DNA from: Syntrophales bacterium
Lineage (GTDB): Bacteria; Desulfobacterota; Syntrophia; Syntrophales; Fen-1087
DNA length: 64,000 bases
Direction of reading: 5' to 3'
Assembly (NCBI GenBank): GCA_034678725.1
Contig: JAXDBM010000070.1
Span: 5,836-69,835, forward strand
Position numbers and translations under genes: made by a program. How positions within the stretch are numbered: the stretch's first letter is position 1; every line of letters begins with the position of its first letter. This document shows, in pieces, positions 15,893 to 64,000 of the stretch. Under the pieces are notes generated by a model. The model ran no database searches. It was not told the DNA's origin and saw only the letters and a list, made by a program, of their open reading frames with translations.

Positions 15893-15943
15893 TTCAGGCT
15901 ACCTCCTCTGTCCTTTTTATCCTCAACCCGACAGCCGCCGCGA

Positions 15944-35378: not shown

Positions 35379-35388
35379 AGGTTCATTG

Positions 35389-48817: not shown

Positions 48818-50281
48818 TTAAAACAGTCTTTTTCTCCGCGAAGAAGGCAGAATTCCCATCCCTTCCCGGTATTTGGCGATGGTCCTTCGGGCAATCGATA
48901 TCCCCGCTTTATCGAGAAGCTCGGCAATCTCGCTGTCACTGTAGGGGTTTCTGGGGTTTTCCCCACCGACAATTTTCCGGATTTCTTCCTTCACGCTTTT
49001 GGATGCGATATCGTCGCCGTTTGATCGGCTGATACCGCTACTGAAAAAATACTTCAGCTCAAAGATGCCCCTGGGCGTCTGCATGTATTTGTTGGTGACC
49101 ACCCGGCTGATGGTCGATTCGTGCATCTGGACATCATCGGCAATATCGCGGAGGACCAGCGGTTTCAGATGCTGGATCCCCTTGTCGAAAAAATCCTTCT
49201 GGTACCCGACGATGCTCTCCGTCACTTTATAGATTGTCTTTTGCCGCTGCTGGATGCTTTTGATCAGCCAGGTTGCCGACTGCACTTTTTCCTTGACATA
49301 CTTTTTCCCGGTTTCCTGATCCTCACTGACATTGTCCGCCATCATGATCTCCCGGTAAAAATTGCTGATTCGCAAACGCGGGAGGCCGTCATCGTTCAGG
49401 ACAATTTTATATTCATCGCCGGACTTGAAAACATAGACATCCGGAATGATCGACTGGATTCTTTCCTCACTGTAGATCCTGCCGGGCTTCGGATCCATGT
49501 TGCTGATCAACTGGACGGCCTGGAGAACATCCGAGAGGGAATATTTCATTTTGCGGGCAATCTGGGTGTAATTTTTCAGTTCCAGGTCTCTCATGTGTTC
49601 CCGAATGATGCCTTCGACCAGCGGGTTTCCGATTTCGAGAAGGCGCGCCTGAATCAGCAGACACTCCTTCAAATCCCGGGCGGCAATCCCGGGCGGATCG
49701 AATTCCTGTATTTTCTTGAGCATTGCTTCAACGCACCCCGCCTCAACCTTCTCCGATAGTGCAATTTCCTCCACATCCACCGTCAGGTATCCATTCTGGT
49801 CCAGGTTTCCGATGATCTGTTCGCCGATTTTCATTTCCTGTTCAGAGCACCGGGTCAGCTTCAGCTGCCACATGAGGTGATCCGTCAGGGAAGGAACGGC
49901 CGTCAGCATGTTTTCCCAGGGTGGGGCCTCGCCGTCGAGGCGATCGTAGGTGACACCCATGGGTCCGTAATCTTCGAGATACCCATTCCAGTCAAAATCT
50001 TCCCTTCCGTCTCCTTCCCCGGTCACTTCGTCCATGCGGTCGATGGCTTTGATCTCTTCCCGTTCAACGACCGGGATGCCATCGGCCTCGGTGTCTGCAA
50101 CCTTCTCCTGCTCGTCATCCGCTGAAATCTCTTCAAGCAGCGGATTTTCCTCCATCTCCTGGTTGATGGTATCGACCAGTTCGAGGCGGGAAAGCTGCAG
50201 CAGCTTGATCGCCTGTTGCAACTGTGGCGTCATAATCAGTTGCTGGGTCAGTTTCAGATTCTGCTTCAGCTCGAAGGCCAT
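48818..50281 (-). CDS. rpoN: RNA polymerase sigma-54 factor
   Basis: LIMTPQLQQAIKLLQL, DPPGIAAR.L.ECL, HESTISR, RpoN box ARRTIAKYRE. Confidence 0.98.
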   Translation of the reverse strand: MAFELKQNLKLTQQLIMTPQLQQAIKLLQLSRLELVDTINQEMEENPLLEEISADDEQEKVADTEADGIPVVEREEIKAIDRMDEVTGEGDGREDFDWNGYLEDYGPMGVTYDRLDGEAPPWENMLTAVPSLTDHLMWQLKLTRCSEQEMKIGEQIIGNLDQNGYLTVDVEEIALSEKVEAGCVEAMLKKIQEFDPPGIAARDLKECLLIQARLLEIGNPLVEGIIREHMRDLELKNYTQIARKMKYSLSDVLQAVQLISNMDPKPGRIYSEERIQSIIPDVYVFKSGDEYKIVLNDDGLPRLRISNFYREIMMADNVSEDQETGKKYVKEKVQSATWLIKSIQQRQKTIYKVTESIVGYQKDFFDKGIQHLKPLVLRDIADDVQMHESTISRVVTNKYMQTPRGIFELKYFFSSGISRSNGDDIASKSVKEEIRKIVGGENPRNPYSDSEIAELLDKAGISIARRTIAKYREGMGILPSSRRKRLF

Positions 50282-50282
50282 G

Positions 50283-51005
50283 TTACAGGTAAAAATCCTC
50301 GCCGAAATAGATTTTTCGCGCCGCTTCGCAATTCGCAATCGTCTCGGGATCTCCCTCAACGAGAATTTTTCCCTCGTTGACGATGTACGCCCTGCCACAG
50401 ACGGAAAGCGTTTCCCGGACGTTATGATCGGAAATGATCACACCGATGCCCTTGGATTTCAGTTTGAAAATAATCTTCTGGATATCGGCCACGGCGAGGG
50501 GATCGATGCCCGCGAAGGGCTCATCCAGCAGGATGTATTTCGGAGACGTGACGAGGGCCCGGGTGATCTCGACCCGCCGCCTTTCGCCTCCGGACAGCGA
50601 ATAGGCATATTGATCGGCCAGAGCCGACAGATCCAGTTCCGCCAGAAGTTCCTTTAAACGCCGGTCCCGAACTTCCTGTGGGACGTCCAGCGTCTCCAGG
50701 ATTGCCATGATATTTTCTCCAACCGTCAGTTTCCGGAAAATGGAGGGTTCCTGAGGCAGATAGTTTATGCCCTTTCTGGCACGGATGTACATGGGGTGCC
50801 GGCCGATGTCTTCCCGATCCAGATAGATATGCCCGCCATCCGGCTGAATCAGACCGGTAATCATGTAAAAAGTCGTAGTTTTGCCGGCTCCGTTAGGTCC
50901 GAGAAGACCGACCACTTCCCCGGGATAAATCTCCAGGTCAATCTCGTTGACGACCTTTCTTCCGCCGTAAATCTTGATCAGCCCGACTGCGGACAGCTTT
51001 TCCAT
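50283..51005 (-). CDS. lptB: LPS export ABC transporter ATP-binding protein
   Basis: GPNGAGKTT, YLPQEPSIFRKL, LSGGERRR, LDEPFAG.DP, SDHNVRETL. Confidence 0.97.
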   Translation of the reverse strand: MEKLSAVGLIKIYGGRKVVNEIDLEIYPGEVVGLLGPNGAGKTTTFYMITGLIQPDGGHIYLDREDIGRHPMYIRARKGINYLPQEPSIFRKLTVGENIMAILETLDVPQEVRDRRLKELLAELDLSALADQYAYSLSGGERRRVEITRALVTSPKYILLDEPFAGIDPLAVADIQKIIFKLKSKGIGVIISDHNVRETLSVCGRAYIVNEGKILVEGDPETIANCEAARKIYFGEDFYL

Positions 51006-51069
51006 CTGCAACAATCTGCCTGGTTTCGCTCATGCCCAGTTTGCAAAGATTCATGCCCCGGAAAGGAGG

Positions 51070-51678
51070 CTATTTCTTTTCCTGCTTCTTTTCGCTTGGA
51101 TAAATCGTCGCCGTCACCCGTTTGTTCTGGTCGCTTTCAACGACGCCACGGTCTTCGTCCAGATAGACGATGATTCGGTGCCCCACGATAACGTTCTTCC
51201 CTTCCCGCATGGCGGCGTTTCCCGTCATGACGACCTTTTGCGAATCCTGATAAAAGATCGCATGGTCGCCCGTCACGACCCGGCCGGGCTGGGTGATGAT
51301 GACGTGGCCCACAGCCTCGACCTGATCCAGATCGCCCGTCTCACCCATCCCCCGGATTTCCTTTTTCTTCGTCTTGTCAGGGTTCTCCTTGTAATGAATG
51401 ATCAGCCGGTCCGCCTTGATGACTTTGTCCCCCTGCGTTGCGACGGCATTCCCCGAAAAAATGACATTTTTTGTTTCATCATATGCATCCAGCCGGTCTG
51501 AAACGATTTGAATCGGCTGATTCCTGTCCATTTTAGCCTTTTTCTGGGTCGACGCCGCCTGTTTTGCCAGAACCGCCCCGGGAATCAGCGCCAAAACCAC
51601 GAAAACGCCCCAAAGCGAGAGCAGAAGGAGGGAGATACTCTTTTTTTCTCGAATCTCTGCAAACATTTTTTCACTCAT
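51070..51678 (-). CDS. lptA: LPS transport periplasmic protein LptA (OstA family)
   Basis: PIQIVSDRL, FSGNAVATQG...IKAD, L.GNA...EG.N...G..I; position between lptC and lptB. Confidence 0.9.
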   Translation of the reverse strand: MSEKMFAEIREKKSISLLLLSLWGVFVVLALIPGAVLAKQAASTQKKAKMDRNQPIQIVSDRLDAYDETKNVIFSGNAVATQGDKVIKADRLIIHYKENPDKTKKKEIRGMGETGDLDQVEAVGHVIITQPGRVVTGDHAIFYQDSQKVVMTGNAAMREGKNVIVGHRIIVYLDEDRGVVESDQNKRVTATIYPSEKKQEKK

Positions 51679-52256
51679 TTCAATTTAATTTCGGCCTTGA
51701 CTTTTGAAACAAGGTTCAGCTCTCCGCTTTTCATGTTGACGGTCAGGCCGGTCCCCATGATTTTCATCTGTCCGCTGGACATGGTGACCGGCGAATTCGT
51801 GTAAATCTTCCCTTCCGCATTGTTATAACTCAATTTATCCGTCGTGAAACGCTCGCCAGCGTCAGAGGTTCCCTCGACATTGCCCACAATTTCGATATCT
51901 TTTTTCTCGGTTTGAAAACGCCCCTTGTCCCCCTTCAGGGTAAAGGACTTTCCATCGGCCGTCAGCATTCGAACCCTGATCTTTTCAAAAAGGGCCACGT
52001 TTTCCTTCTTGAGGTATTGCGCCGTATCCGCCTTGATTTCCCATTTTTCACCCGACTGGCCGACATCGGTGTAAATGACATTCTTTACCTGAAGATCGAT
52101 ATTTTCGGCCATGACCTTCAGGATCTTCTCGGGCGCTTTCCTGTCATTCACCACCTTCAGGACAATGGAGACCGACAGAATCACCAGGGCAGACAAACCC
52201 GCGATTATCCAAGTTTTCTTTCTAAATCTGATCCTGCTTGAATTTATAGCATTCAT
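51675..52256 (-). CDS. lptC: LPS export periplasmic protein LptC
   Basis: Single N-terminal TM helix, WEIKA..A, beta-jellyroll repeats (G..F.T..L.Y); synteny. Confidence 0.87.
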   Translation of the reverse strand: MNAINSSRIRFRKKTWIIAGLSALVILSVSIVLKVVNDRKAPEKILKVMAENIDLQVKNVIYTDVGQSGEKWEIKADTAQYLKKENVALFEKIRVRMLTADGKSFTLKGDKGRFQTEKKDIEIVGNVEGTSDAGERFTTDKLSYNNAEGKIYTNSPVTMSSGQMKIMGTGLTVNMKSGELNLVSKVKAEIKLK

Positions 52257-52303
52257 GGTCGCAGAAGTAAAGGCGAATCATGGAAATCAGGCAGATCGAA
52301 TAC

Positions 52304-52846
52304 TTAGGCAAATTCATATTTCTTTGCCACTTCGACCCATTGATCCCGAGATTTCATAATGATCTCACAGACTTCCCGTATAGCCCCCCTACCGCCCCGG
52401 TTTCGGGTCACGTAGTGAGCCGCCTTTTTCGCTTCCGGCACCGCGTCCCGCACGGCAACGGCGAAACCGACCCTCCTCAAAAGGGGGATATCAACGACAT
52501 CATCTCCGACATAGGCGACCTCCGCCGGTTGAAGATCCATCCTGACCAGAAGCTTCTCAAAAACAGCGGCTTTGTCCCAGATCGACTGGTGAACTTCGGT
52601 AATTCCGAGGTCACGGGCACGGTGCAGAACAACTTCCGACTGCCTCCCGGTGATCAGGACGACGGAAATCCCGCAGCGCATGAGCATTTTCAGGCCGTGC
52701 CCGTCCTTGACGTCAAAATGCTTCGTCTCGCACCCCCTGTCATCCATGATGATCCGGCCATCCGTCAGAACGCCGTCCACATCGAGCATCAGCACCCGTA
52801 TGGGTTTGATCTTTTCGGCCAGCGGCGCATCACCGGTGTTCGTCAT
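52304..52846 (-). CDS. kdsC: 3-deoxy-D-manno-octulosonate 8-phosphate phosphatase
   Basis: DVDGVLTDG, FDVKDGHG, ITGRQS, YVGDD..D, GGRGAIRE. Confidence 0.95.
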   Translation of the reverse strand: MTNTGDAPLAEKIKPIRVLMLDVDGVLTDGRIIMDDRGCETKHFDVKDGHGLKMLMRCGISVVLITGRQSEVVLHRARDLGITEVHQSIWDKAAVFEKLLVRMDLQPAEVAYVGDDVVDIPLLRRVGFAVAVRDAVPEAKKAAHYVTRNRGGRGAIREVCEIIMKSRDQWVEVAKKYEFA

Positions 52847-52860
52847 CGCCCCCCCTGCAT

Positions 52861-53718
52861 TCACCCCAATCCTTGTCGATTCTTGACCAGCCGATCGATC
52901 CGGACCAGCATGCGAAGAAGATCCGGGAGATCATCAACCGCCAGAGAGTTCGGCCCGTCACAGAGGGCGCAGTCCGGATCCGGGTGAACTTCCAGAAACA
53001 GGCCGTCAATGCCGACAGCGACCGCCGCCCTCGCAAGATAGGAGACCATTTCGCGCTGACCGCCGGAAGAGGTTCCCTGACCCCCGGGAAGCTGGACACT
53101 GTGAGTCGCGTCAAAAACAACCGGATACCCCATGGCCCGAATCTCCGGAAGCGACCGGAAGTCCGCCACGAGATTGTTATAGCCGAAACTGGCGCCCCGT
53201 TCCGTGACCATGATGTCTTCATTGCCTGTCGACGCAGCCTTCTGCAGGATGTTTCTCACATCCCAGGGCGCCAGAAACTGTCCCTTCTTGATGTTGACGA
53301 CCCTGGCCTGTCTGGCGATTTCGATCACAAAGTCGGTTTGCCGGCACAGGAAGGCCGGAACCTGAAGAATGTCGGCAACTTTAGAGGACGGTTCGATCTC
53401 CTCGAAACGATGGACGTCCGTCAGAACGGGAACCGCAAAATTCTTTTTGACTTTCTCCAGAATCTGCAGGCCTTCCCGAAGGCCCGGCCCCCGGTAGGAG
53501 CCGAGGGATGTGCGGTTTGCCTTGTCATAGGAGGCCTTGAAGATGAAGGGAATCTGAAGGCGGCCCGTGAGCTTTTTCAAATCATCGGCAAGCGCCATGG
53601 TTTTCGCTTCATCTTCGATGACGCAGGGACCCGCGATCAGCACAAACGGTTCATCCCCGCCGATGAGCATCTCATTCAGGCGGATCTGACGCGTTTCTTC
53701 CCGATTCCGTTTCAACAT
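52861..53718 (-). CDS. kdsA: 3-deoxy-8-phosphooctulonate synthase
   Basis: AGPCVIE, KASYDKANRTS, PAFLCRQTD, KKGQFLAP, ERG.SFGY, DATHSVQLPG. Confidence 0.97.
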   Translation of the reverse strand: MLKRNREETRQIRLNEMLIGGDEPFVLIAGPCVIEDEAKTMALADDLKKLTGRLQIPFIFKASYDKANRTSLGSYRGPGLREGLQILEKVKKNFAVPVLTDVHRFEEIEPSSKVADILQVPAFLCRQTDFVIEIARQARVVNIKKGQFLAPWDVRNILQKAASTGNEDIMVTERGASFGYNNLVADFRSLPEIRAMGYPVVFDATHSVQLPGGQGTSSGGQREMVSYLARAAVAVGIDGLFLEVHPDPDCALCDGPNSLAVDDLPDLLRMLVRIDRLVKNRQGLG

Positions 53719-53723
53719 CCTCC

Positions 53724-55739
53724 TTACCCTTCCCGGTTTTTCTGCTCCAGCAGGCGAATCTTCAGCGCCCGGAACCGCTCTGCCGCTTTCTTTGATTCGC
53801 CGTTCAATTCATAAGCGGATCGATAGGCGTTGAGCGCCTCTGAATACATTTGCTTCTTTTCATAGGCTTCGCCCAGCCGGACATACACCGCATCATCCCC
53901 CGGATCGTGGCGTAAGGCCAATTTGTAAAATTCGACCGCCTTGTCGTGGTTCCCTTTCAAACCGTAGGCCTGACCGAGGTTTGCGTACACGGGCGCCTTC
54001 TTGGCAAGGAGCGGCAGAATCTTCTGATAGGTTGCGATTGCCCTGTCATACTGCCTGCCGCGGATATAGTAATCCGAAAGCGTATTCAGGACATCGGCCG
54101 TCGGCTGGACGGCAGCGTACTGCTCGTAGGCCCCTATCGCTTCTTTTGTCTTGCCCAGCCTTCCGTAGGTGTAGGCCAGGTTGTACAGGATCTGCGGGTC
54201 TTTGTTGCCGTATCGGATGGCCTTTTCGTAGTTCTCAGCCGAGGGATTCAGTTTTTTCAGTTCGCCATAGGCAAATCCGAGATTGGCGTGAATCACGGCC
54301 TTTCGCCTGGATTTTGCGACGATCTGCTCATAGAGCTGAATGGCCTGTGGATAATGTTTGTCCCTGTACTCCAGGTTGGCCAGCCGCTCCACAGCGTCGG
54401 CATCGCCCGTTTTCCGGTCACCGAACTTGCGGTATATCTTGGCAGCCTCCCTGTTCTGCTTGTTTTTCTCGAGGGCCGCAGCCAGATTCAGCTGCACGAC
54501 GGACTCCTTCGGATTCAATTCCACGGCCCGCCTCAAGCTGGCAATTTCCTCTCTGACCAGACCCTTTTTCTGGTATGCGAGGCCCAGATTGGCATAGATT
54601 GCAGCGTTCCGGGGCTGCTTCCTCAAGGCTTCCCGGTACCACTTGATCGCCTCATCGACATGGCCCGTCTTGAGGGAGACGTCTGCCAGGGCGATCATGG
54701 CATAATCGGCCTTTGGAACCTTGGCGAGGTAATTCCGGTACTGACTTGCGGCTTCATTGATCTTGCCGCTCTTCTCGTACGCCTCTCCCAGACGATAGAG
54801 GAGAATGGTGTTGTCGGGACTGAGCCTCACCGCCTCCCGGTAATTCGCGATCGCCCGATCCCACTGGTTCAGCTTCCCCTGGGCATAAGCGACGTTGGCG
54901 TATGTCGCACCGTCCTGCCGGTTGACCTGAAGCAGCATGGCGCCTGTTTTGACGACCTGGTCATAGTCCTTGCCGTTCATGTAGCACTTGAGCAACTCGG
55001 ACAGGGCGGCGGCATCGTCCGGCTTGCGGGCAAGGACTTCCTTGTACAAGGCGATCGCGTCCGCTGTCTTGCCCTGGCGGGTGTAGACTGCCGCCAGCAT
55101 TTTCCGGACCTGTGTGTCCTCGCGGTTGACGGCGATGGCCTGCTTGAGATAGTCCGCCTGCAGGCGCTTATCATCGGAATCCTTCGCGTATCTGAGAAAA
55201 TCCTGCGGTGTGATGGTTACTTTCATCGGAATCCGGGCGATCACGCTGTCACGATAGAGCACGTTGATGTGATGCTCGGGAACCTGACCGGCCGGCGGAC
55301 CGCCTTTGCTCACCGTCATCAATTTGTCAATGAGTTCGATCCCCTTGAGAAGCCGGCGGAAGTCATTCTTTTCGCCGAGCCCTTCAACATCGACGGCAAC
55401 GCCCTTTTCCAGCAGATCGTCCGAGACGATGCCCTTGATGACGAATTCATCCCTGTAGGAAAGATCGAATGCGTCCTGTGCGCTCAGTTGGTAGTCCTTC
55501 CCGTTCTTCTCCACCAGCAGATAATAGAAATGCGGATTCCGGCCCAACACAAAAAAGGAAAATGCGTTGACCGCCCGCGTTGCGAAAAAAGGAGCTTTGA
55601 CGGACGTCCGGGAAAAGAATGCATAACCCCCTGCCCCCAGCAGGATGACGAAAACAGCGGCCAGGATGAGAGCGATCTTCCGTCGCCCGGGAGGTTTGAT
55701 CTTCTTTCTTACGGCCGGCCGGCCCGATTCATATTCCAT
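53724..55739 (-). CDS. Membrane-anchored tetratricopeptide repeat protein
   Basis: N-terminal basic stretch plus TM helix, then about 170 aa unique region, then serial TPR-like repeats (YANLG.AY...G....A...Y..A). Confidence 0.88.
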   Translation of the reverse strand: MEYESGRPAVRKKIKPPGRRKIALILAAVFVILLGAGGYAFFSRTSVKAPFFATRAVNAFSFFVLGRNPHFYYLLVEKNGKDYQLSAQDAFDLSYRDEFVIKGIVSDDLLEKGVAVDVEGLGEKNDFRRLLKGIELIDKLMTVSKGGPPAGQVPEHHINVLYRDSVIARIPMKVTITPQDFLRYAKDSDDKRLQADYLKQAIAVNREDTQVRKMLAAVYTRQGKTADAIALYKEVLARKPDDAAALSELLKCYMNGKDYDQVVKTGAMLLQVNRQDGATYANVAYAQGKLNQWDRAIANYREAVRLSPDNTILLYRLGEAYEKSGKINEAASQYRNYLAKVPKADYAMIALADVSLKTGHVDEAIKWYREALRKQPRNAAIYANLGLAYQKKGLVREEIASLRRAVELNPKESVVQLNLAAALEKNKQNREAAKIYRKFGDRKTGDADAVERLANLEYRDKHYPQAIQLYEQIVAKSRRKAVIHANLGFAYGELKKLNPSAENYEKAIRYGNKDPQILYNLAYTYGRLGKTKEAIGAYEQYAAVQPTADVLNTLSDYYIRGRQYDRAIATYQKILPLLAKKAPVYANLGQAYGLKGNHDKAVEFYKLALRHDPGDDAVYVRLGEAYEKKQMYSEALNAYRSAYELNGESKKAAERFRALKIRLLEQKNREG

Positions 55740-55812
55740 GCGTTAAATCCGGCAGATAATTCTTAATAAATTAATAAATTTAATTCGTTATATCAGGATA
55801 TGGTCCGGTCCG

Positions 55813-56700
55813 TCAGCTCCGCGGATGGTACTTCCTGTGAACATCCCTCAGCCGCTCCCGTGTGACATGGGTGTAGATCTGCGTTGTCGAGATGTCGGCG
55901 TGACCCAGCATCATCTGCACGGAACGGAGATCGGCGCCCCCTTCCAGCAGGTGGGTGGCAAATGAATGCCGGAATGTGTGCGGATGAACCTTTGTCCCCA
56001 ATCCCGCCCGGAGTGCGTATTTTCTGACGATTTTCCAGAATCCCTGTCTCGTGAGCCCCTGCCCGGACCGGTTCAGAAACAGCAGGTCGCTCTGCCGTCC
56101 CTTTATCAGCCGGGGTCTTGATTCCTCGATATATCGACGCAGGCAGTCAAAGGCACACCGACCGATCGGAACAATCCGCGCCTTCCCCCCTTTGCCCATC
56201 GTCGAGAGAAAGCCGACCTGCCAACTGATATCGTTCATCTTGAGATGGATCAACTCGGAGGCGCGGAGTCCAGTTGCGTACATCAGCTCAAGCATGGCCC
56301 GGTCCCTCCATCCGGCATTTCCGTCCGGAAGGGGCTGCTCCAGCAGATGGTTCATTTCCTCACGGTTCAGCGTTCCGGGCAGGCGCATCCAGACCCTTGC
56401 CAGTTCGATGCGGACAAGGGGATTCCGGTCCGCGATTCCTTCCCGCAGCAGGTACTTGTGAAATCCCCGGACAGCCGCCAGAGCACGGTTCACGGAACTT
56501 GCGGAAAGTCCCGCGCTTTTCCGTTCGGCGAGATAGGCCATGACAACATCGGGGGAAATTTCCTGGGGAACTGCGCAACCGCTTTTTCGGGCAAAAGCGA
56601 GGTAGCCGTTCAAGTCGCGGCTATAGGCGTCCAGAGTGTTTCTCGAGCATCCTCTTTCAACGAAAAGGCAGTTCAAATACTGATCCAGAAACTCGTGCAT
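55813..56700 (-). CDS. xerD: Site-specific tyrosine recombinase XerD
   Basis: NTL.AY.RDL, RDRAMLELMYATGLR.SEL, GKG.K.R.VP, HPHTFRHSFATHLL.GGADLR.VQ.MLGH.DISTTQIYTH. Confidence 0.95.
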   Translation of the reverse strand: MHEFLDQYLNCLFVERGCSRNTLDAYSRDLNGYLAFARKSGCAVPQEISPDVVMAYLAERKSAGLSASSVNRALAAVRGFHKYLLREGIADRNPLVRIELARVWMRLPGTLNREEMNHLLEQPLPDGNAGWRDRAMLELMYATGLRASELIHLKMNDISWQVGFLSTMGKGGKARIVPIGRCAFDCLRRYIEESRPRLIKGRQSDLLFLNRSGQGLTRQGFWKIVRKYALRAGLGTKVHPHTFRHSFATHLLEGGADLRSVQMMLGHADISTTQIYTHVTRERLRDVHRKYHPRS

Positions 56701-56760
56701 GGAATGTTTTTAACGCAAATGAGGCGGGGAAGCAAAGCTTTTTTAAAAAAGATAAATTTA

Positions 56761-56787
56761 TTGACATCAAACCGGGCTTATGATAAT
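56761..56787 (+). promoter_or_regulatory. Putative sigma70 promoter for the DRTGG-redox gene cluster
   Basis: TTGACA followed after 15 nt by GATAAT (short spacer), preceded by an A/T tract. Confidence 0.4.
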
Positions 56788-56925
56788 CGGACGGACGTCA
56801 AATGCGGCCAAGTTACAAGCTTTTTTATTTCAGAAAATCTCGAGAAACGTCCCCGGGGGCAGTCAGTTCAAATGGCGGCTTTGGGCATAGCCGCCACAAG
56901 CCGTTTTTCGCACAAGGAGGTCATC

Positions 56926-57300
56926 GTGACCCTCAATGATGTAAAAGAGATACTGAATGCCGATGTTCTGGTCGGACAGGATCAGATGGAAATGGAGGTA
57001 AAGACCGCCTTTGGCGCTGACCTGATGAGTGACGTGCTCGCATTTGCCAAATCAGGCAGCCTTCTGCTCACCGGATTGACAAACCCCCAAGTCATTCGCA
57101 CATCCGATATCCTTGACATTGCCGCCATTGTGATGGTCCGGGGCAAAAAACCGGTTCCGGAGACCATCCGTCTGGCGGAAGAGCTTAAAATTCCGGTCCT
57201 TTCGACAAAATACATTCTCTTTGAAACAGCCGGTCGTTTGTATGAAAAAGGCATCAAGGGTTGCGTAGAAAGGGTTGACAGCAACATTGAACGCCCCTGA
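56926..57300 (+). CDS. DRTGG-domain protein 1
   Basis: GTG start after AAGGAGG; ADLMSDVL, LLTGL.N.QV.RT, I..VRGK.P, IPVLST. Confidence 0.85.
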   Translation: MTLNDVKEILNADVLVGQDQMEMEVKTAFGADLMSDVLAFAKSGSLLLTGLTNPQVIRTSDILDIAAIVMVRGKKPVPETIRLAEELKIPVLSTKYILFETAGRLYEKGIKGCVERVDSNIERP

Positions 57301-57736
57301 AAAACCCATCTATGAATGCAGCTACACCGTTGAGGGTGGAAATTTTGACGAGGCGGGGAAGGTTTCCAGCCAGATCAAGGCGAATTTGAAAAAGCTGCAT
57401 CTGAGCCAGGACGTCGTCATGAAGGCCTCCCTGGTCGCCTATGAATCAGAAATCAATATCGTCTCCTATGCAAAAAGAGGGATGATTCAACTGTCCGTAA
57501 CGCCCCATAAGGTCAAGATCGAAACCATCGACGAAGGACAGGGGATCCCGGACATCGATCTGGCCATGCAGGAGGGCTATTCCACCGCAACCTCAAAGAT
57601 CAGGGAAATGGGCTTTGGCGCGGGCATGGGATTGTGCAACATCAAGAAATTTTCCGACCTGTTTCAGATCACTTCGGAAATCGGCAAGGGAACCCATCTG
57701 AAGATGGTCATCAATATTGCCAACAACTCGTCATAA
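57275..57736 (+). CDS. Anti-sigma-factor-type (RsbW/RsbT-like) GHKL Ser/Thr kinase
   Basis: YESEINIV (N box), DEGQGIPDI..AMQEGYST (G1), GFGAGMGL (G2), S..GKGT; TTG start at 57275 or 57287. Confidence 0.87.
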   Translation: MTATLNAPEKPIYECSYTVEGGNFDEAGKVSSQIKANLKKLHLSQDVVMKASLVAYESEINIVSYAKRGMIQLSVTPHKVKIETIDEGQGIPDIDLAMQEGYSTATSKIREMGFGAGMGLCNIKKFSDLFQITSEIGKGTHLKMVINIANNSS

Positions 57737-57754
57737 AGGGGAAAAAGAAAGCCG

Positions 57755-58117
57755 GTGGACCTCGCATCAATCGTTAAATTTTTGAACCTGAAGGTTTGCG
57801 CGGGCGCGGACCAGCTCAACCGACCCGTACGCGGGGGGTACACGGGCGATCTTTTGAGCGACGTCATGGGAAACAGCAAGGAAGGGGATGTCTGGGTCAC
57901 GCGACAGGTCCATCAGAACATTGTCGCGGTGGCCAGCCTGAAGGAGCACGCCGGAATCATCCTCGTCCACGGGGCCCAGCCGGCAAAAGACACACTGGAG
58001 AGAGCGACGCGGGAAAACATACCCCTGCTGGTATCCGAACAATCCGGCTTTGACGTCGTGGGGCAGATCCACGCCCTGATCGCCAAAGAGAAAAATAACG
58101 CCGTTTCGGGGCATTAA
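57755..58117 (+). CDS. DRTGG-domain protein 2
   Basis: GGY.GDLLSDVM, VWVT.Q.H.N.VAVA, A.RENIPLL. Confidence 0.83.
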   Translation: MDLASIVKFLNLKVCAGADQLNRPVRGGYTGDLLSDVMGNSKEGDVWVTRQVHQNIVAVASLKEHAGIILVHGAQPAKDTLERATRENIPLLVSEQSGFDVVGQIHALIAKEKNNAVSGH

Positions 58118-58167
58118 GACCATGCGAATCATGGTCTTTTTTTTGATATTTTTTCAGGATACGCATC

Positions 58168-58908
58168 ATGCTCAGGGCGTTTCGCTGCGATCTTCACATG
58201 CACACCTGTCTTTCGCCCTGCGCGGAATTCGACATGTATCCGAAAGCACTCATTGACAAATGCATAAGCGAAAAGCTGGACCTGATCGCCGTCTGTGACC
58301 ACAACGCATCGGAAAACGTGCCTCCCGTCCTGAGCCTGGCAAAGGGGAAGCCGCTGACCGTTCTGCCGGGGATGGAAATATCCAGCATGGAGGAGGTGCA
58401 CCTGCTGGCCCTCTTCGACGACCTGGGCGACCTTCTGAAGCTTCAGCGGATCGTCTACGAAAATCTCCCGGGCAGAAATCAGGAGGAGCTTTTCGGATGC
58501 CAGGTCATCGTCAACGACCGGGATGAAGTGGAGGGCATGAACGAGCGGCTGCTCATCGGTGCAACCCAACTGCCGCTTCAGGAAATCATCGACCGGATTC
58601 ACTCCCTGGGCGGCCTTGCCGTGGCTTCCCATATCGATCGCCCCAGCTACAGCGTCATCAGCCAGCTTGGATTCATCGATCCGTCCATGCCCTTTGACGC
58701 CCTGGAGGTCACGCCGGCAATCGGAATCAGGGGGGCCCGGCGGCAGTACCCCGAGCTTTCCTCCTTTGCATTTATCGAATCATCGGATGCCCATTTTGTC
58801 CATGATATCGGTCGGGCGTTCACGACGATGATCCTCGCGGGGGCAAACATCCGCGAGCTGAAGCTTGCCTTTGAAAACCGGGACGGGCGCCATGTGGAGG
58901 CACCGTGA
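58168..58908 (+). CDS. PHP-domain phosphoesterase
   Basis: DLHMHT.LSPC, DHN, GMEI...EEVH, SHIDR, SSDAH metal ligands. Confidence 0.9.
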   Translation: MLRAFRCDLHMHTCLSPCAEFDMYPKALIDKCISEKLDLIAVCDHNASENVPPVLSLAKGKPLTVLPGMEISSMEEVHLLALFDDLGDLLKLQRIVYENLPGRNQEELFGCQVIVNDRDEVEGMNERLLIGATQLPLQEIIDRIHSLGGLAVASHIDRPSYSVISQLGFIDPSMPFDALEVTPAIGIRGARRQYPELSSFAFIESSDAHFVHDIGRAFTTMILAGANIRELKLAFENRDGRHVEAP

Positions 58909-58911
58909 GCC

Positions 58912-59460
58912 GTGCTGGAACTGTCCCTTCATATCCTGGACATTGCGGAAAACAGCATACGCGCCAGGGCCCGCCGGGTCGTAATCGCGATGACGGAAGA
59001 TGGCGAAGCGGACCGGTTGACACTGGAAGTCCGGGATGACGGAAAAGGGATGACCGGGGAGGAGCGGAAGCGGGCCCTGGACCCTTTTTACACGACCAAG
59101 AAAGTCCGGCGTGTGGGACTGGGGCTTCCGATGCTGGCACAGGCCGCCGCCAATACCGGAGGAAGCCTGGAAATTGAATCGAATCCGGAGGCGGGCACCA
59201 CGGTCCGGGTTGTCTTCGGGCTCCGTCACATCGACCGTCAGCCCCTGGGGGATCTGCCGGGGACAATCGTTACACTGGTGGCTGGAAATCCGGACATCCG
59301 CTTCGTCTACCGCCATCAACGCGACGGTCGGGTCTACACGCTGGACACGGATGAAATCAAGAGGGAAATAGAAGATGTCCCGATCAATCACATCGAGGTT
59401 TTAAAATTCATCCGCCATGATGTCGAGGATGGTCTGAAGGAAATCAACGCGGAGGCATGA
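58912..59460 (+). CDS. Stand-alone histidine-kinase-like ATPase (HATPase_c) protein
   Basis: ELSLHILDIAENS (N box), DDGKGM (G1), DPFYTTK (F), GLGL (G2); no HisKA helix pair. Confidence 0.88.
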   Translation: MLELSLHILDIAENSIRARARRVVIAMTEDGEADRLTLEVRDDGKGMTGEERKRALDPFYTTKKVRRVGLGLPMLAQAAANTGGSLEIESNPEAGTTVRVVFGLRHIDRQPLGDLPGTIVTLVAGNPDIRFVYRHQRDGRVYTLDTDEIKREIEDVPINHIEVLKFIRHDVEDGLKEINAEA

Positions 59461-59492
59461 AGCAAGGAAATATAGGGATGAAGGAGGCGTCA

Positions 59493-59987
59493 ATGAAATT
59501 GGAAGATGGTGACCTGTTGAAAGAATTCACTCCGGATCAAATCGCAAAACTCGATGCGATCATTCAAAAATACAAGGGGAAACCGGGCGGGCTGATTCCC
59601 GTTCTCGAAGAGGCCCAGGTGTCTCTGGAATATCTGCCCATCGGCGTGCAGAAACGGATTGCCAAAGGCCTGAACCTGCCGTTGAGCCGGGTTTACGGCG
59701 TGGTGACTTTCTATTCGTTTTTCACCATGACCCCCCGGGGAAAGCACACCGTCCGCGTGTGTCTCGGAACGGCCTGCTATGTCCGGGGAGGCAAGGCCAT
59801 TGCGGAAAAGCTGGAAAAAGAATTCGGCGTCAAGGAAGGCGAAACCACGCCCGACCGGATGTTCACCTATGAGACCGTCCGGTGCCTGGGCGCCTGCGGC
59901 CTGGGGCCGGTCGTCGTCATCGATGAAGATGTTCACGGCCGGGTCAAACCGGGCAAAGTCCGGGAAATTCTCAGCCAGTACAATTAA
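59493..59987 (+). CDS. NuoE/HydC-like [2Fe-2S] subunit
   Basis: LIPVL..AQ...YLP, VYGVVTFYSFF, VCLGTACYVRG, CLGACGLGP; AAGGAGG RBS. Confidence 0.93.
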   Translation: MKLEDGDLLKEFTPDQIAKLDAIIQKYKGKPGGLIPVLEEAQVSLEYLPIGVQKRIAKGLNLPLSRVYGVVTFYSFFTMTPRGKHTVRVCLGTACYVRGGKAIAEKLEKEFGVKEGETTPDRMFTYETVRCLGACGLGPVVVIDEDVHGRVKPGKVREILSQYN

Positions 59988-60007
59988 CGATCAGCGGGGG
60001 AGAGATC

Positions 60008-60391
60008 ATGGCGAAACTGAAAATAGAAGACTTGAAGAAGATCAAGGAAAAGGTCCATGCGGAAACGGCCCTGCGCGATGGCGATCGACGGGCGAAAATC
60101 ACCGTTCACATGGGAACCTGCGGCATCGCCTCCGGCGCGAGAGAAGTCATGGATGCCCTGATGCGGGCCATCGAGGAGGTGAACGTGACGGACGTGGCCG
60201 TGACCACATCGGGCTGCATGGGCCTGTGCAGCCGCGAACCGCTGGTCACCGTTGAAATTATCGGCCAGGAGCCGATCAAGTACGAATATATGGACGCCAA
60301 TAAAATGAGACAGGTCTTCAAAAAGCATGTGCTCGAAGGGGACATCCAGACCCCGTTCGTACTGGCACGGGGCGCGGAGAAGACAAAATAG
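60008..60391 (+). CDS. Thioredoxin-like [2Fe-2S] ferredoxin subunit (HndB/HydD-like)
   Basis: ITVHMGTCGIASGA, TSGCMGLCSREP. Confidence 0.88.
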   Translation: MAKLKIEDLKKIKEKVHAETALRDGDRRAKITVHMGTCGIASGAREVMDALMRAIEEVNVTDVAVTTSGCMGLCSREPLVTVEIIGQEPIKYEYMDANKMRQVFKKHVLEGDIQTPFVLARGAEKTK

Positions 60392-60462
60392 CGGCTGACG
60401 AAATGGGCCGCGGGCCGAGGTCAGGCGGCTGCCAATACAGGCTGAAGGAGGATTTAAACCAA

Positions 60463-63400
60463 ATGAAAATGTTTCGTTCGCACTTGTTGCTCTGTGGCGG
60501 AACCGGCTGCCATGCATCAGGAAGCCTGAACGTCAAGAAGGCCATTGTTGCCGAGCTTCTGAAGCGGGGACTTGCCGAAGAAATAAAAATCGTGGAAACC
60601 GGATGCAACGGCTTCTGCGCCATGGGCCCCATCATGGTGGTCTATCCCGAGGGGGTCATCTACATGCAGATCAGGCAGGATGACATTCCCGAACTGGTGG
60701 AAGAACATCTGGTCAAGGGAAGAATCCTGCAGCGTCTGCTGTACCGGGAACCCTCCACGGAAGCGGTGATTCCGACCATGCAGGAAATCCCGTTCTTTGC
60801 GCTTCAGGAACTGCGCGTCCTGAGAAACCGGGGTCTGATCGACCCGGAAAAAATTGAGGAATACATCGCCCGGGACGGATACGCCGGAATGGCCAAAGCC
60901 CTCACTGAGATGAAACCGGAAGACATCGTCAGGGAAATCCTGGACTCCGGTTTGCGGGGCCGCGGCGGCGCCGGATTCCCGACCGGATTGAAGTGGAAAT
61001 TCGCATCCCAGTCCCCCGGTGACATCAAGTACGTACTCTGCAACGCCGACGAGGGCGATCCGGGCGCTTTCATGGACCGCAGCGTTCTCGAGGCGGATCC
61101 CCATGCTGTCCTGGAGGGCATGGTGATCGCCGCCAAGGCCATCGGCTCCCATCACGGCTACATCTACTGCCGGGCCGAATATCCCCTGGCCATCCACCGC
61201 CTCAACATCGCCATCGCCCAGGCCAAGGAAGCGGGCCTGCTGGGAGAGGACATCCTGGGAACGGGCTTCGATTTCGACCTGGAGATCTACCAGGGCGCCG
61301 GCGCCTTCGTCTGCGGCGAAGAAACGGCGCTGATGACATCCATAGAGGGCAAGCGCGGAATGCCCCGCCCCCGGCCCCCCTTTCCCGCCATCGCCGGCCT
61401 CTGGCAGAGGCCCAGCGTCCTGAACAACGTCGAAACCCTGGCCAACATCGGCCAGATCATCCTCAAGGGTGCGCAGTGGCACGCCGGCGTCGGAACGGAA
61501 AAGAGCAAGGGGACAAAGGTCTTCGCCCTGACCGGTGACGTCAACAACGTCGGACTGGTCGAAGTCCCGATGGGAACGACGCTGGGAACCATCGTTTACG
61601 ACATCGGCGGCGGAATCCCCAAAGGCAAGAAATTCAAGGCTGCGCAGCTGGGCGGCCCCTCCGGCGGCTGCATTCCGATCCAGCATCTCAATGCGTCGGT
61701 CGACTACGAAAAGGTCGCCGAGCTCGGCGCCATCATGGGTTCGGGCGGACTGATCGTCATGAACGAGGACAACTGCGCTGTCGACATGGCGCGTTTCTTC
61801 ATGGATTTCTGCCAGGATGAATCCTGCGGCAAGTGCACCCCCTGCCGGGAGGGCACCAAACGGATGCTCGAGATCCTGACGAACATCACGCAGGGAAAAG
61901 GCAAGGAGGGGGACATCGAGCTGCTCGAACAGATGGCCCCCATCATCAAGGATGCCTCGCTCTGCGGCCTCGGGCAGACGGCGCCGAACCCGGTGCTGAG
62001 CACACTTCGCTATTTCCGCCAGGAATACGAGGAGCACATCCATCAGAAATACTGCCGTTCGGCGGTCTGCACGGCGCTGTTCAAGTCGCCCTGCCAGAAC
62101 ACCTGCCCGATCGGGATGGACGTACCCGCCTATATCGCCCTGATCCGCGCGGAGCGTTTCGAGGATGCGTACAAAGTCATGCTCCGGACCAACCCCTTCC
62201 CCTCGGTGTGCGGACGGGTCTGCGATCACAAGTGCCAGACCAAATGCCGTCGCGGCAAGATGGACGAGCCGATTGCCATCAAGTTCCTGAAGCGGTTCAT
62301 CACGGACAATGCGCCCCGGCCCAAAATCGTCCCGGTGCCGGTTACCCGGAAAGAGAAGATCGCCGTCGTCGGCGCCGGACCGGCGGGACTCACCGCCGCA
62401 CGCGACCTGGCGCTGCGGGGCTACGGCGTGACGATCTTCGAGGAACTGCCCAACCCGGGAGGAATGCTGCGCTGGGCGATTCCCGCCTACCGCCTTCCCC
62501 GGAACATCCTGGACCGGGAAATCGACGACATCCGCAGCCTGGGCGTGGAGATCAAGTGCAACACCCGTGTGGGCAAGACCATTTCCTTTGACCAGGTCGG
62601 CAAGGATTTCGACATCGTTTACCTCGCACCCGGTGCACACAGAAGCCAGAAAATGGGCGTGGAGGGGGAGGACAAGGCGGGCGTGTACGGCGGCGTCGAA
62701 TTCCTGAGGGATTTCAATGCCAATGAAGCGGCATGGATGAAGGGAGACAAAAAGCTGGGCGACAGGGTCGCCGTCATCGGCGGTGGGAACTCCGCCATCG
62801 ATGCGGCCCGTTGCGCCATCCGGCTCGGCGCGGAAGTCACGATCCTTTACCGCCGCCTGCGCCAGGACATGCCGGCTGCCGCCGAGGAGATTGAAGCGGC
62901 GGAACATGAAGGAATCAAGATCGAGTACCTGGTGGCGCCGCTGAAGATCGTTTCCACCGACGGAAGGGTAACCGGGATCAGCTGCGAGCGGATGAAGCTG
63001 GGAGACTTCGACAAGAGCGGGCGGAAGCGGCCGGTTCCCGTCAAGGGGTCCGAATTCACCCTGTCCGTCGATGCCGTCATCGCGGCCATCGGACAGGTTC
63101 CCGATCTCTCCTTTGTCCCGAAGGACAGCGGTGTGCGCGTCAACAAGTGGGACTGCTTCGACCTGGCGGCGGGCAGCCGGTCCCGGACGACGGATGACCG
63201 GTTTTACGCCGGCGGCGATGCCGTGACCGGGCCCGATACGGTGATCGGCGCCATCGCGGCCGGTCATCAGGCGGCCGCCGACATCGATGCGGAGATCCGA
63301 CGGAAAAACGGAGAGCCTGCCTACGAGGCGCCCGCAGAGGAAAAAATCGACATCCCCCTCATCATCGATGAGGAATCTGCGGAAGCCCCGCAGACAAAAA

Positions 63401-63519
63401 TGCCCGAGCTGGATGCCCGGGCCAGAAAACTGAGCTTCGTGGAAGTGGAACTGGGCTTTGCCCGGGAGGATGCGATTCGGGAGGCGATCCGCTGCCTGCG
63501 CTGCGACGCTGAAATTTAA
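60463..63519 (+). CDS. NuoF/HydB-like FMN-NAD(H) flavoprotein fused to a GltD/NfnB-like FAD-NADP(H) oxidoreductase
   Basis: CGGTGC/GCNGFC [2Fe-2S]; GLRGRGGAGFPTG, NADEGDPGAFMDR, GAGAFVCGEETAL, GGPSGG, ESCGKCTPCREG, CGLG; then PCQNTCP, CGRVC...C...C, GAGPAG, GGGNSA.D, YRR, AGGD...GP, EA.RCLRC. Confidence 0.92.
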   Translation: MKMFRSHLLLCGGTGCHASGSLNVKKAIVAELLKRGLAEEIKIVETGCNGFCAMGPIMVVYPEGVIYMQIRQDDIPELVEEHLVKGRILQRLLYREPSTEAVIPTMQEIPFFALQELRVLRNRGLIDPEKIEEYIARDGYAGMAKALTEMKPEDIVREILDSGLRGRGGAGFPTGLKWKFASQSPGDIKYVLCNADEGDPGAFMDRSVLEADPHAVLEGMVIAAKAIGSHHGYIYCRAEYPLAIHRLNIAIAQAKEAGLLGEDILGTGFDFDLEIYQGAGAFVCGEETALMTSIEGKRGMPRPRPPFPAIAGLWQRPSVLNNVETLANIGQIILKGAQWHAGVGTEKSKGTKVFALTGDVNNVGLVEVPMGTTLGTIVYDIGGGIPKGKKFKAAQLGGPSGGCIPIQHLNASVDYEKVAELGAIMGSGGLIVMNEDNCAVDMARFFMDFCQDESCGKCTPCREGTKRMLEILTNITQGKGKEGDIELLEQMAPIIKDASLCGLGQTAPNPVLSTLRYFRQEYEEHIHQKYCRSAVCTALFKSPCQNTCPIGMDVPAYIALIRAERFEDAYKVMLRTNPFPSVCGRVCDHKCQTKCRRGKMDEPIAIKFLKRFITDNAPRPKIVPVPVTRKEKIAVVGAGPAGLTAARDLALRGYGVTIFEELPNPGGMLRWAIPAYRLPRNILDREIDDIRSLGVEIKCNTRVGKTISFDQVGKDFDIVYLAPGAHRSQKMGVEGEDKAGVYGGVEFLRDFNANEAAWMKGDKKLGDRVAVIGGGNSAIDAARCAIRLGAEVTILYRRLRQDMPAAAEEIEAAEHEGIKIEYLVAPLKIVSTDGRVTGISCERMKLGDFDKSGRKRPVPVKGSEFTLSVDAVIAAIGQVPDLSFVPKDSGVRVNKWDCFDLAAGSRSRTTDDRFYAGGDAVTGPDTVIGAIAAGHQAAADIDAEIRRKNGEPAYEAPAEEKIDIPLIIDEESAEAPQTKMPELDARARKLSFVEVELGFAREDAIREAIRCLRCDAEI

Positions 63520-63543
63520 GCGGCGGATCGAACCGGCTCTTTG

Positions 63544-64000
63544 TCAGGGTACGGGCTGCATCCATTTGCAGCGGCTGCCGTCGTAGAACCATTTGTCTGG
63601 AAAGCCGCGGCGTTTGGCAAAGGTGGGATTTCTGGACCAGTGCATGAGGTCCAGATAGGCATCGTGTATTTTCCGGAAGGTTTCGGCGTCGCCCCCCACA
63701 TCGGGATGGTGAATTTTCGCCTGCCTGCGGTAAGCGTCCCGAATGACCGCCGGAAGGTCCGGGGCCATGAGGTCGATCCTGCTGATCTTGAGCGCGGTCA
63801 TCGAGGTCCCCCGTAGCGAAGGAACGATCGTCTGGACGGGCCTGACGGGCCGCATGGGCGTCGGATTTCGCACCGCTTGGGCAAGAACATGGCGGGAGGC
63901 AAGGTACCGCTTGTGCGTTCTTTTCTGCTCGGTCCACCACATCTCGCCGAGGATGTCCGCCATACGGCTGAAGTCCTCGGCGGGTGTTCTGTTTCTGGAC
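63544..64000 (-). CDS. Protein with C-terminal J domain (5' part runs off the right edge)
   Basis: IRDAYRRQAKIHHPDVGGDAETFRKIHDAY (HPD motif); the frame stays open upstream of the ATG at 63963 to the window edge. Confidence 0.85.
   Translation of the reverse strand, partial: SRNRTPAEDFSRMADILGEMWWTEQKRTHKRYLASRHVLAQAVRNPTPMRPVRPVQTIVPSLRGTSMTALKISRIDLMAPDLPAVIRDAYRRQAKIHHPDVGGDAETFRKIHDAYLDLMHWSRNPTFAKRRGFPDKWFYDGSRCKWMQPVP

Follow-up and report, generated by a model that had tools for sequence, protein, structure and literature searches.

The window analysed here is a stretch of 64,000 nucleotides (nt) of DNA from a Syntrophales bacterium (GenBank assembly GCA_034678725.1, contig JAXDBM010000070.1, positions 5,836 to 69,835 of the forward strand). 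Near its 3' end eight genes on the + strand lie head to tail at 56926-63519, separated by gaps of 71 nt or less or joined by small overlaps, and the last three of them (59493-63519) are the subject of this study. They encode a NuoE-like subunit, a small thioredoxin-like ferredoxin and a 1018-residue protein in which the core of a HydB subunit is fused to a cassette of the GltD family. The first-pass annotation, made from the sequence alone, had described the genes, domains and motifs of this cluster, and all of them were recovered, each in its place, from the open reading frames (ORFs), the Pfam matches and a motif check.

The fusion protein and its two halves

Along the fusion the Pfam domains follow each other in the order 2Fe-2S_thioredx (residues 6-81), Complex1_51K (160-329), SLBB (353-402), NADH_4Fe-4S (441-525), Fer4_20 (532-617) and Pyr_redox_2 (632-934). 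The whole NuoF core, made up of the domain for flavin mononucleotide (FMN) and reduced nicotinamide adenine dinucleotide (NADH), the SLBB domain and the B1 cluster, was matched (PF01512, PF10531 and PF10589), and the motifs NADEGDPGAFMDR, ESCGKCTPCR and EHIHQKYCRSAVC start at residues 194, 453 and 524, respectively. Residues 1-542 align gap-free (E 6e-241) with 7t2r_B, the B subunit of the bifurcating NiFe-HydABCSL of Acetomicrobium mobile, and almost equally well with the HydB proteins of A. woodii, T. kivui and T. maritima, with StnB and with the NfnB of NfnABC. Since the numbering is identical to that of 7t2r_B, the ligands described for that structure (PMC9304861) can be read directly on the fusion: C11, C16, C48 and C52 for the N-terminal [2Fe-2S] cluster (B5), C455, C458, C461 and C501 for the [4Fe-4S] cluster B1, and C438, T476, H525, C531 and C536 for the B2/Zn site. 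Some structures have [2Fe-2S] modelled at the B2 site and others zinc, and the histidine of this site is missing from non-bifurcating homologues (PMC9304861).

The first-pass annotation had proposed an alignment to bifurcating versus non-bifurcating HydB signature residues. Bifurcating and non-bifurcating beta subunits have been told apart by three features, namely an Ala or Glu and a Met near the NADH site, a Phe near FMN, and the sequence GGPSG (Losey, PMC7311640). In the fusion PGAFMDR supplies the Ala and the Met, GAGAFVCGEE the Phe, and the SLBB domain contains GGPSG, so that it scores as bifurcating on all three. Judged by these residues, its HydB half is a bifurcating-type core.

The second half contains the two [4Fe-4S] clusters of Fer4_20, a site for flavin adenine dinucleotide (FAD; GAGPAG), a site of the type that binds reduced nicotinamide adenine dinucleotide phosphate (NADPH; GGGNSA...YRR) and a C-terminal EAIRCLRC; its motifs are PCQNTCP at residue 543, CGRVCDHKCQTKC at 583, VGAGPAG at 636, GGGNSAIDAAR at 773, YRR at 796 and RCLRC at 1010. 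Its best matches among solved structures are residues 101-567 of 9bov_A (E 6e-113), the NfnA of Csac (9n5u_A, E 2e-107) and residues 101-566 of StnC (8oh5_C, E 5e-101, query 541-1015), followed by NfnB of T. maritima (4ylf_B, E 1.4e-100) and NfnL of P. furiosus (5jca_L, E 3.5e-94), with true GltD chains as its most distant solved relatives (E 1e-61). The last 40 residues of the fusion (...FVEVELGF...EAIRCLRC) are the counterpart of the N-terminus of NfnB, which gives the cassette a permuted topology, with boundaries exactly as in the StnC insert. As the first-pass annotation had stated, the alignments show that one chain unites a HydB core for FMN and NAD(H) with an NfnB/Stn-type module for FAD and NADP(H).

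The site of the switch had also been placed correctly. In an ordinary HydB (P0129, 597 residues, with a core 60% identical) the domains lie at the same coordinates as far as residue 525, and a Fer4 dicluster domain then occupies 543-597. No Fer4 dicluster domain was matched by Pfam in the fusion, where the Fer4_20 of the cassette starts at 532/543 instead. The cassette thus takes exactly the place of that domain, with the junction at about residue 542.

Relatives of the fusion were found in at least 346 stretches (one genome per species), the best 80 of which are from Syntrophales-type metagenome-assembled genomes and Smithella sp. SCADC. The 120 best of 8000 scored homologues belong to Syntrophales, Syntrophaceae and Smithella, are 82-100% identical to it and 965-1025 residues long, and are annotated as 'NuoF', 'FAD-dependent oxidoreductase' or 'HndC'. 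We fetched 84 loci (L001-L084) with up to 8 kb on each side, and counted gene conservation on 80, the best of the 346 species-level stretches. The fusion was matched from residue 1 to residue 1018 in 82 of the 84 loci, and the cofactor motifs are intact in all 83 full-length orthologues. Because of this conservation of motifs and of end-to-end length, the architecture is not a product of chance. The B2 ligands including His525 and the three bifurcating signatures are likewise present in 83/83 orthologues, and all of these keep the complete B1 cluster, from which the A subunit receives electrons.

The two smaller proteins carry putative cluster ligands of their own. Four cysteines (C-x4-C and C-x3-C) can be read in the NuoE-like subunit, which also matches the NCBIfam models for HoxE, NuoE and the gamma subunit of formate dehydrogenase, each under its cut-off. 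The small ferredoxin aligns as a paralogue of the N-terminal [2Fe-2S] domain of the fusion, with a histidine in place of the first cysteine, and its putative ligands H34, C38, C70 and C74 are kept in 83/83 orthologues, which suggests a His/Cys3 cluster of shifted potential and not a degenerate domain.

Table 1. Positions of the cluster genes, of the two halves of the fusion and of other genes in the window; fractions are numbers of loci in which the gene is conserved.
Feature	Coordinates	Strand	Basis and remarks
DRTGG-domain protein	56926..57300	+	PF07085 on the identical contig L081; GTG start; first gene of the cluster; 69/80 loci
Stand-alone HATPase, SpoIIAB/RsbW-like Ser-kinase type	57275..57736	+	HATPase_c, HATPase_c_2; 69/80 loci
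Second DRTGG-domain protein	57755..58117	+	PF07085, E 3.9e-5, slightly below gathering score; 72/80 loci
PHP-domain (metal-dependent phosphoesterase) protein	58168..58908	+	PF02811; 72/80 loci
Second stand-alone HATPase	58912..59460	+	PF02518, E 1.3e-16; 72/80 loci
NuoE/HydC/BfuC-like subunit, [2Fe-2S] C1	59493..59987	+	PF01257, E 6e-51; 78/80 loci
Thioredoxin-like ferredoxin, 127 residues, HndB position	60008..60391	+	Weak PF01257; 79/80 loci
Fusion ORF, 1018 residues	60463..63519	+	Pfam domains, motifs; TAA stop 63517-63519
HydB/BfuB-like half, residues 1-540	60463..62082	+	Alignments to 7t2r_B and 7q4v_B
NfnL/Stn-type GltD cassette, residues 541-1018	62083..63519	+	Structure-chain matches, Pfam
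Convergent J-domain gene	63544..64000, cut by window end	-	Weak PF00226; 266 residues on L081
secA	18180-20750		Confirmed gene
EF-G-like gene	24621-26705		Confirmed gene
lepA-like ORF	35386-37185		N-terminus reading only
M23 peptidase	44507-45838		Confirmed gene
rpoN	48818-50398		Confirmed gene

Catalytic partners downstream of the fusion

According to the first-pass annotation the cluster ends at a TAA, a convergent gene follows within 25 nt, and no HydA, FdhA or GltB is therefore attached. The ending is as described, the gap between the stop codon and the convergent ORF being 24 nt. The window itself, however, ends 481 nt 3' of the stop codon of the fusion, and a contig of 113 kb (L081) carries the sequence further. 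It is 99.96% identical to window positions 50463-64000 (13,538 nt), and so represents the same population. On L081 the convergent gene (13082-13882, - strand) encodes a protein of 266 residues and is followed, at 13995-16694, by an 899-codon fdhA gene, the start of which would lie at about 64457 in window coordinates, that is 457 nt past the window end and 937 nt past the stop of the fusion. The claim therefore fails for FdhA; no gltB and no Fe_hyd_lg_C gene were found within 10 kb on L081, where an NfnA/NfnS-like gene was also lacking. The apparent want of a catalytic partner was an artefact of the window boundary and of a small lineage-specific insertion.

This downstream gene is predicted to encode a working, selenocysteine (Sec)-containing alpha subunit of a formate dehydrogenase. 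It has an in-frame TGA at codon 355, within the motif VDHCARL-U-HSVTVAGL, and the TGA is kept in 25/25 FdhA orthologues. When the 60 nt after the TGA were folded, a candidate Sec insertion sequence appeared as a hairpin that begins 3 nt downstream, with -25.6 kcal/mol and a z-score of only -1.6. The N-terminal 220 residues form a NuoG-like [2Fe-2S]/[4Fe-4S] domain, and the C-terminal part alone scores 702.5 against the TIGR01591 cut-off for Fdh-alpha of 666.25. The best solved relatives are the NAD-linked, FdsA-type chains 7vw6_A and 6tg9_A, together with FdhF chains, the match to FdsA (E 1e-229) being about level with that to any solved chain. No further NuoE or NuoF genes lie next to fdhA on L081, and the gene after it, on the opposite strand (16795-18084), encodes a major facilitator superfamily (MFS) transporter.

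The protein of the convergent gene combines a Cys-rich N-terminal segment (CLSCG...CSAYC) with a J-domain at its C-terminus, in which the HPD motif is present; searched at full length, it gave no Pfam match with an E-value of 1e-5 or lower. This convergent gene occurs 3' of the fusion only at L001, L002 and L015 among L001-L080, and on the identical contigs L081-L084. At the closest other relatives with downstream sequence (L003, L004 and L022, 89-90% identical) fdhA follows 15 nt after the fusion, so that the convergent gene looks recently inserted; it is a lineage-specific insertion and no part of the enzyme.

We then counted downstream linkage in those 79 Syntrophales loci whose downstream sequence runs to 400 nt or more; five of the 84 loci had no room there for a partner gene. 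A NuoG-like A-subunit gene lies on the same strand within 200 nt of the fusion in 50/79, and FdhA is found further downstream, behind an inserted M29 peptidase gene or other genes, in 11/79, which brings the linked loci to 61/79. The adjacent partner is either Sec-FdhA or, at Smithella-type loci such as L019, a 590-residue [FeFe] HydA followed by HydF. A third arrangement was found at L005 (11160-13508), where the gene after the fusion encodes a NuoG-like protein whose molybdopterin domain is truncated, and a NiFe small subunit (Oxidored_q6) comes next, in what is, from its gene order, a layout like that of NiFe-HydABCSL. B subunits with over 80% identity thus pair with different catalytic heads (FdhA, FeFe and NiFe). 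Genes for formate-related transport recur near the loci, even where fdhA is not adjacent (L040 14488-15369, L024 and L072); among their products are FNT-type formate/nitrite channels and, next to fdhA, an MFS transporter.

A search of 1.8 billion representatives yielded further full-length fusions at 36-54% identity, and one of these (P0121, a 54% relative) served to scan metagenomes, in which a second lineage of 44 fusions with downstream sequence was found. The next gene is HydA in 30/44, FdhA in 3/44 and a cut NuoG-like gene in another 3/44, while in the remaining 8/44 a second NuoE and an ordinary NuoF come first and are followed by HydA (4), FdhA (2) or the contig end (2). None of the 44 fusions lacks a following gene of these kinds. 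The operons with two B subunits (L113, L115, L116, L118-L121 and L125) imply that a GltD-fused and an ordinary B subunit either occur in one complex or are alternatives. The same linkage in both lineages indicates that the fusion serves multimeric hydrogenases and formate dehydrogenases as their B subunit and is not a free-standing enzyme.

Two other groups of proteins came from the same search. In seven full-length NuoF-GltD fusions at 36-44% identity (P0123, P0126, P0138, P0140, P0144, P0163 and P0196) the FMN/NADH motifs are degenerate, and P0138, P0144, P0163 and P0196 bear an additional C-terminal Cys-rich extension; by their sequences the seven are a separate subfamily. Proteins of about 650 residues (for example P0197) consist of the NuoF cluster domain and the cassette only. 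We take this layout to be that of SfrB, which presumably pairs with the Fdh-like SfrA. Set beside SfrAB of Geobacter sulfurreducens by description (PMC7483475), these NADH_4Fe-4S, Fer4_20 and Pyr_redox_2 proteins share the NuoF-cluster/GltD junction of the fusion but are without its FMN/NAD(H) domain and its N-terminal [2Fe-2S] domain.

These linkages bear directly on the first-pass reading of the locus as a HydABC-like complex with no hydrogenase, in which the NuoE-like subunit, the ferredoxin and the fusion alone would form an A-subunit-free NADH:NADP+ transhydrogenase, or an Nfn-like NADH-dependent ferredoxin:NADP+ oxidoreductase. Such an enzyme would suit the two intact nucleotide sites, the stop codon and convergent gene at which the three genes end, and the 18/79 Syntrophales loci at which no A-subunit gene was found throughout the fetched stretch. 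We consider it highly improbable all the same, since FdhA is encoded 0.94 kb downstream in the same organism, FdhA, HydA or NiFe genes are linked to the fusion at the 61 Syntrophales loci and at all 44 of the second lineage, the B1 cluster toward the A subunit is fully conserved, and Stn without the Fdh-like part of its A subunit gave no active purified complex (PMC10482914). The single-chain-core transhydrogenase was thus not borne out: an FdhA, an [FeFe] HydA or a [NiFe] module nearly always stands directly after the fusion in the relatives.

Nor does the cassette appear to work for the large subunit of a glutamate synthase, or for some other partner of GltD whose gene lies elsewhere. Such a role would agree with the domain family common to GltD and the cassette and with the matches to NCBIfam gltD models, and a link to glutamate has been suggested for Vallitalea, described below (PMC6163223). 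True GltD chains match it far less well than the Stn type (1e-61 versus 6e-113), and no gltB was found within 10 kb or at the related loci examined. With no gltB nearby and a cassette of Nfn/Stn type we rejected this link, to which we give almost no credence.

Possible coupling of formate with NAD(H) and NADP(H)

We read 59493-63519 as the BfuC, HndB-like and BfuB module of a soluble, cytoplasmic formate dehydrogenase / CO2 reductase of the HydABC/Bfu type with NADP(H) coupling, a reading that, taken whole, seems to us evenly balanced between right and wrong. Its first part, that the product of the three genes is a module of the formate dehydrogenase, is probable; its second, a three-way coupling in which NADP(H) replaces ferredoxin, is held only tentatively. 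The reading builds on the observed domain swap, intact cofactor ligands and bifurcating-type signatures, and on the recurrent association of the fusion with FdhA, HydA or NiFe genes in different lineages.

The closest known systems are the Bfu/HydABC enzymes (7t2r; 7q4v, 8a6t and 7p5h), for which we used the family definition of PMC9304861. Shared with them are the NuoE-like C subunit, a B core with the N-terminal [2Fe-2S] cluster, FMN, SLBB, B1 and B2, and an A subunit with a NuoG-like N-terminus, although here the gene for the latter lies behind the convergent gene, whereas it is adjacent in most relatives. In contrast, the ferredoxin-type domain that carries B3 and B4 (IPR017896) is swapped for the 477-residue NfnL-type FAD/NADPH cassette, and an extra HndB-like subunit is present. 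The missing C-terminal domain belongs to the defining set of the family and is its ferredoxin-reducing end; from the domain content, this part of BfuB is the one defining Bfu feature that is absent here. As regards Hnd (HndABCD), the thioredoxin-fold protein between the NuoE-like and NuoF-like genes is likened to HndB by its position, while no HydA-type HndD was found within 10 kb at this locus, such a gene being present in the Smithella-type relatives.

Stn/NfnABC (8oh5, 9n5u and 9bov) likewise combines NuoE-like and NuoF-like subunits with an NfnL-type cassette of the same permuted topology and boundaries. In Stn, however, the cassette is inserted in the A subunit and B keeps its ferredoxin domain, whereas here the cassette sits on the C-terminus of B; and the Fdh-like domain of the Stn A subunit is catalytically dead (PMC10482914), in contrast to the Sec-FdhA described above with its score above the TIGR01591 cut-off. 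NfnAB/NfnSL (4ylf and 5jca) has the same NfnB/NfnL module, with two [4Fe-4S] clusters, FAD and an NADPH site (PCxxxCP, CxxxCxxxCxxxC, GAGPAG, GGGNSA and YRR), but the cassette is circularly permuted relative to NfnB, the ...RCLxC segment standing at its C-terminal end, and no NfnA/NfnS (FNR-like, with [2Fe-2S] and FAD, NAD(H)-binding) is encoded in the cluster or within 10 kb. Without NfnA the system is not NfnAB. The first-pass suggestion that the FMN module replaces NfnA finds no support either, as the cassette has the topology and boundaries of the insert in StnC and in the Bfu-type NfnA, and the FAD of the Stn insert has been reported to be non-bifurcating, a plain entry point for electrons (PMC10482914).

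With the FdsABG formate dehydrogenases of Rhodobacter capsulatus (6tg9/6tga) and Methylorubrum (7vw6) the system has in common a NuoE-like and a NuoF-like subunit and an FdhA with a NuoG-like N-terminus and a molybdenum/tungsten bis(pyranopterin guanine dinucleotide) domain. The Fds B subunits are non-bifurcating and without extra clusters (PMC9304861); here the B subunit is bifurcating in type, with an additional site for flavin and nucleotide, and FdhA would use Sec, as predicted from the in-frame TGA. The only earlier trace of such a fusion that we found is in Vallitalea guaymasensis L81, for which a one-sentence annotation in a 2018 genome paper mentions a trimeric [FeFe] hydrogenase with an enlarged HydB (peg.3894-3896; PMC6163223). 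Set beside it by description, the NuoE-fusion-HydA operons from metagenomes share its layout, which differs from the present locus in that the partner is HydA and not Sec-FdhA and in having no HndB-like gene and no DRTGG/HATPase/PHP cassette.

In Bfu enzymes the low-potential path runs from C1 over B3 and B4 to ferredoxin, which has been seen docked 12.8 Å from both clusters (PMC12018979). By analogy with the A subunits of all solved relatives, FdhA would dock so that its cluster chain reaches B1, and NAD(H) would react at FMN, as in the Bfu, Stn and Fds complexes. The mobile C1 of the NuoE-like subunit would then pass electrons to the two clusters of the cassette and on to FAD and NADP(H), not to B3/B4 and ferredoxin, and the overall reaction would be 2 formate + NAD+ + NADP+ <-> 2 CO2 + NADH + NADPH. 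The potentials are about -280 mV for NAD(H), -380 mV for NADP(H) and -500 mV for ferredoxin (PMC9304861), and about -290 mV for CO2/formate at 10 µM formate or less (PMC8805022). With these values the joint oxidation of NADPH and NADH would permit a syntroph to reach higher formate concentrations than that of NADH alone, without reduced ferredoxin. A ferredoxin-free bifurcation/confurcation of the Bfu type, with a low-potential arm that ends in NADP(H) and with NADH and NADPH oxidised jointly to form formate, is possible but, in our estimate, on the doubtful side.

The same complex with FdhA could instead be uncoupled, with an exit for NAD+ at FMN and another for NADP+ at FAD, so that either coenzyme is used and transhydrogenation is a side reaction. 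The plain, non-bifurcating behaviour reported for the FAD of StnC, whose insert is the closest relative of the cassette, points this way, as do the intactness of both nucleotide sites and the use of a non-bifurcating NADH-linked formate dehydrogenase and hydrogenase by Syntrophus relatives (PMC8805022; PMC7311640). We nevertheless consider it unlikely, since the HydB half has every bifurcating signature (the N-terminal [2Fe-2S] cluster, the site of His525 and Cys, PGAFMDR, the Phe and GGPSG), signatures that are absent from non-bifurcating homologues (PMC9304861, PMC7311640), and since, on general reasoning, free communication between the NADH and NADPH sites would short-circuit both pools.

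Ferredoxin may also have been retained, docking at the [4Fe-4S] clusters of the cassette as it does on NfnL, in which case its reaction partners would be formate, NAD(H), NADP(H) and ferredoxin, and electrons might be bifurcated both at the FMN flavobicluster and at FAD. The strong matches of the cassette to the bifurcating NfnB of T. maritima and to NfnL of P. furiosus, the Arg of the FRLP motif that it keeps, and the [2Fe-2S]-like His/Cys3 protein found in 79/80 loci, which could give a second path from FAD, are all in keeping with this. It is quite improbable, however, given that the cassette is nearer the Stn/NfnABC inserts (6e-113 to 5e-101), for which the FAD of Stn is the non-bifurcating one already mentioned, that no NfnA/NfnS-like partner is encoded nearby, and that Firmicute-type operons carry the fusion without an extra ferredoxin gene.

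Several points weigh against the NADP(H)-coupled formate dehydrogenase that we favour. In this organism the fusion and fdhA are not co-transcribed, as a convergent gene of 0.8 kb lies between them, and their partnership rests on synteny in relatives and on there being no other NuoE or NuoF gene beside fdhA; the 18 Syntrophales loci without an A-subunit gene count on the same side. Energetic coupling of the two nucleotide sites is not readable from sequence. In the formate-oxidising direction low-potential electrons that end on NADP+ would waste driving force, and the GltD clusters could, by analogy with NfnL, be a docking site for ferredoxin.

Neighbouring genes and significance

The five genes upstream of the NuoE-like gene, which encode the DRTGG, HATPase and PHP proteins, are co-conserved with the fusion in 69-72/80 loci, and the cluster as a whole is kept, all eight genes, in about 70/80, while the flanking genes vary. 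The HATPase proteins, which belong to what the first-pass annotation took for a kinase module that would control the enzyme, are, by their domain content, bare domains of the SpoIIAB/RsbW kind and not classical histidine kinases; for the first of them NCBIfam also gave a weak match, to anti-sigma F factor. At 58116-58138 (+), where the second DRTGG gene gives way to the PHP gene in an otherwise tightly packed cluster, a 9-bp hairpin is followed by a run of T and may act as an attenuator or terminator within the cluster. Consensus scans for promoters and terminators over 56400-64000 and L081 12900-17000 yielded no promoter-like sites, and terminator matches near shuffle expectation; the 24-nt gap 3' of the fusion is free of terminators, and Rfam and tRNA scans of the window had no matches.

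A 916-residue ORF runs antisense to the fusion (60517-63267, - strand), and similar long ORFs lie opposite other genes; they are shadow ORFs of GC-rich coding sequence and are not genes. Window positions 1-56000 hold housekeeping genes, the sole one related to the finding being a MogA/MoaB-like gene for molybdopterin biosynthesis (26707-27198).

In the literature we found only the one-sentence Vallitalea note on a HydB/NuoF-GltD fusion (PMC6163223), and no study of its biochemistry, structure or physiology; it goes unmentioned in the Bfu survey (PMC9304861), in Losey 2020, Kremp 2020 and Kumar 2023, in the Stn papers and in the papers on the formate dehydrogenases and hydrogenases of Syntrophus. 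This architecture is real and widespread, an as yet uncharacterised variant within a known enzyme family, and surveys that require the C-terminal ferredoxin domain probably miss such genes when bifurcating enzymes are counted.

It has long been asked how syntrophs manage to pass the electrons of NADH to CO2 or protons, and the known answers are very low product levels with non-bifurcating enzymes, or confurcation with reduced ferredoxin. If NADPH does substitute for ferredoxin, the fusion would represent a third solution to the NADH-to-formate/H2 problem, and a natural experiment on the Bfu mechanism, in which one core occurs with its low-potential arm exchanged and with a choice of three catalytic heads (FdhA, FeFe and NiFe). 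Syntrophales and some Firmicutes would then gain a route past the NADH-to-formate/H2 barrier that uses pyridine nucleotides only, with sister operons yielding H2 instead of formate, and a proton-driven or Nfn-type transhydrogenase supplying the NADPH would be its hidden energy input.

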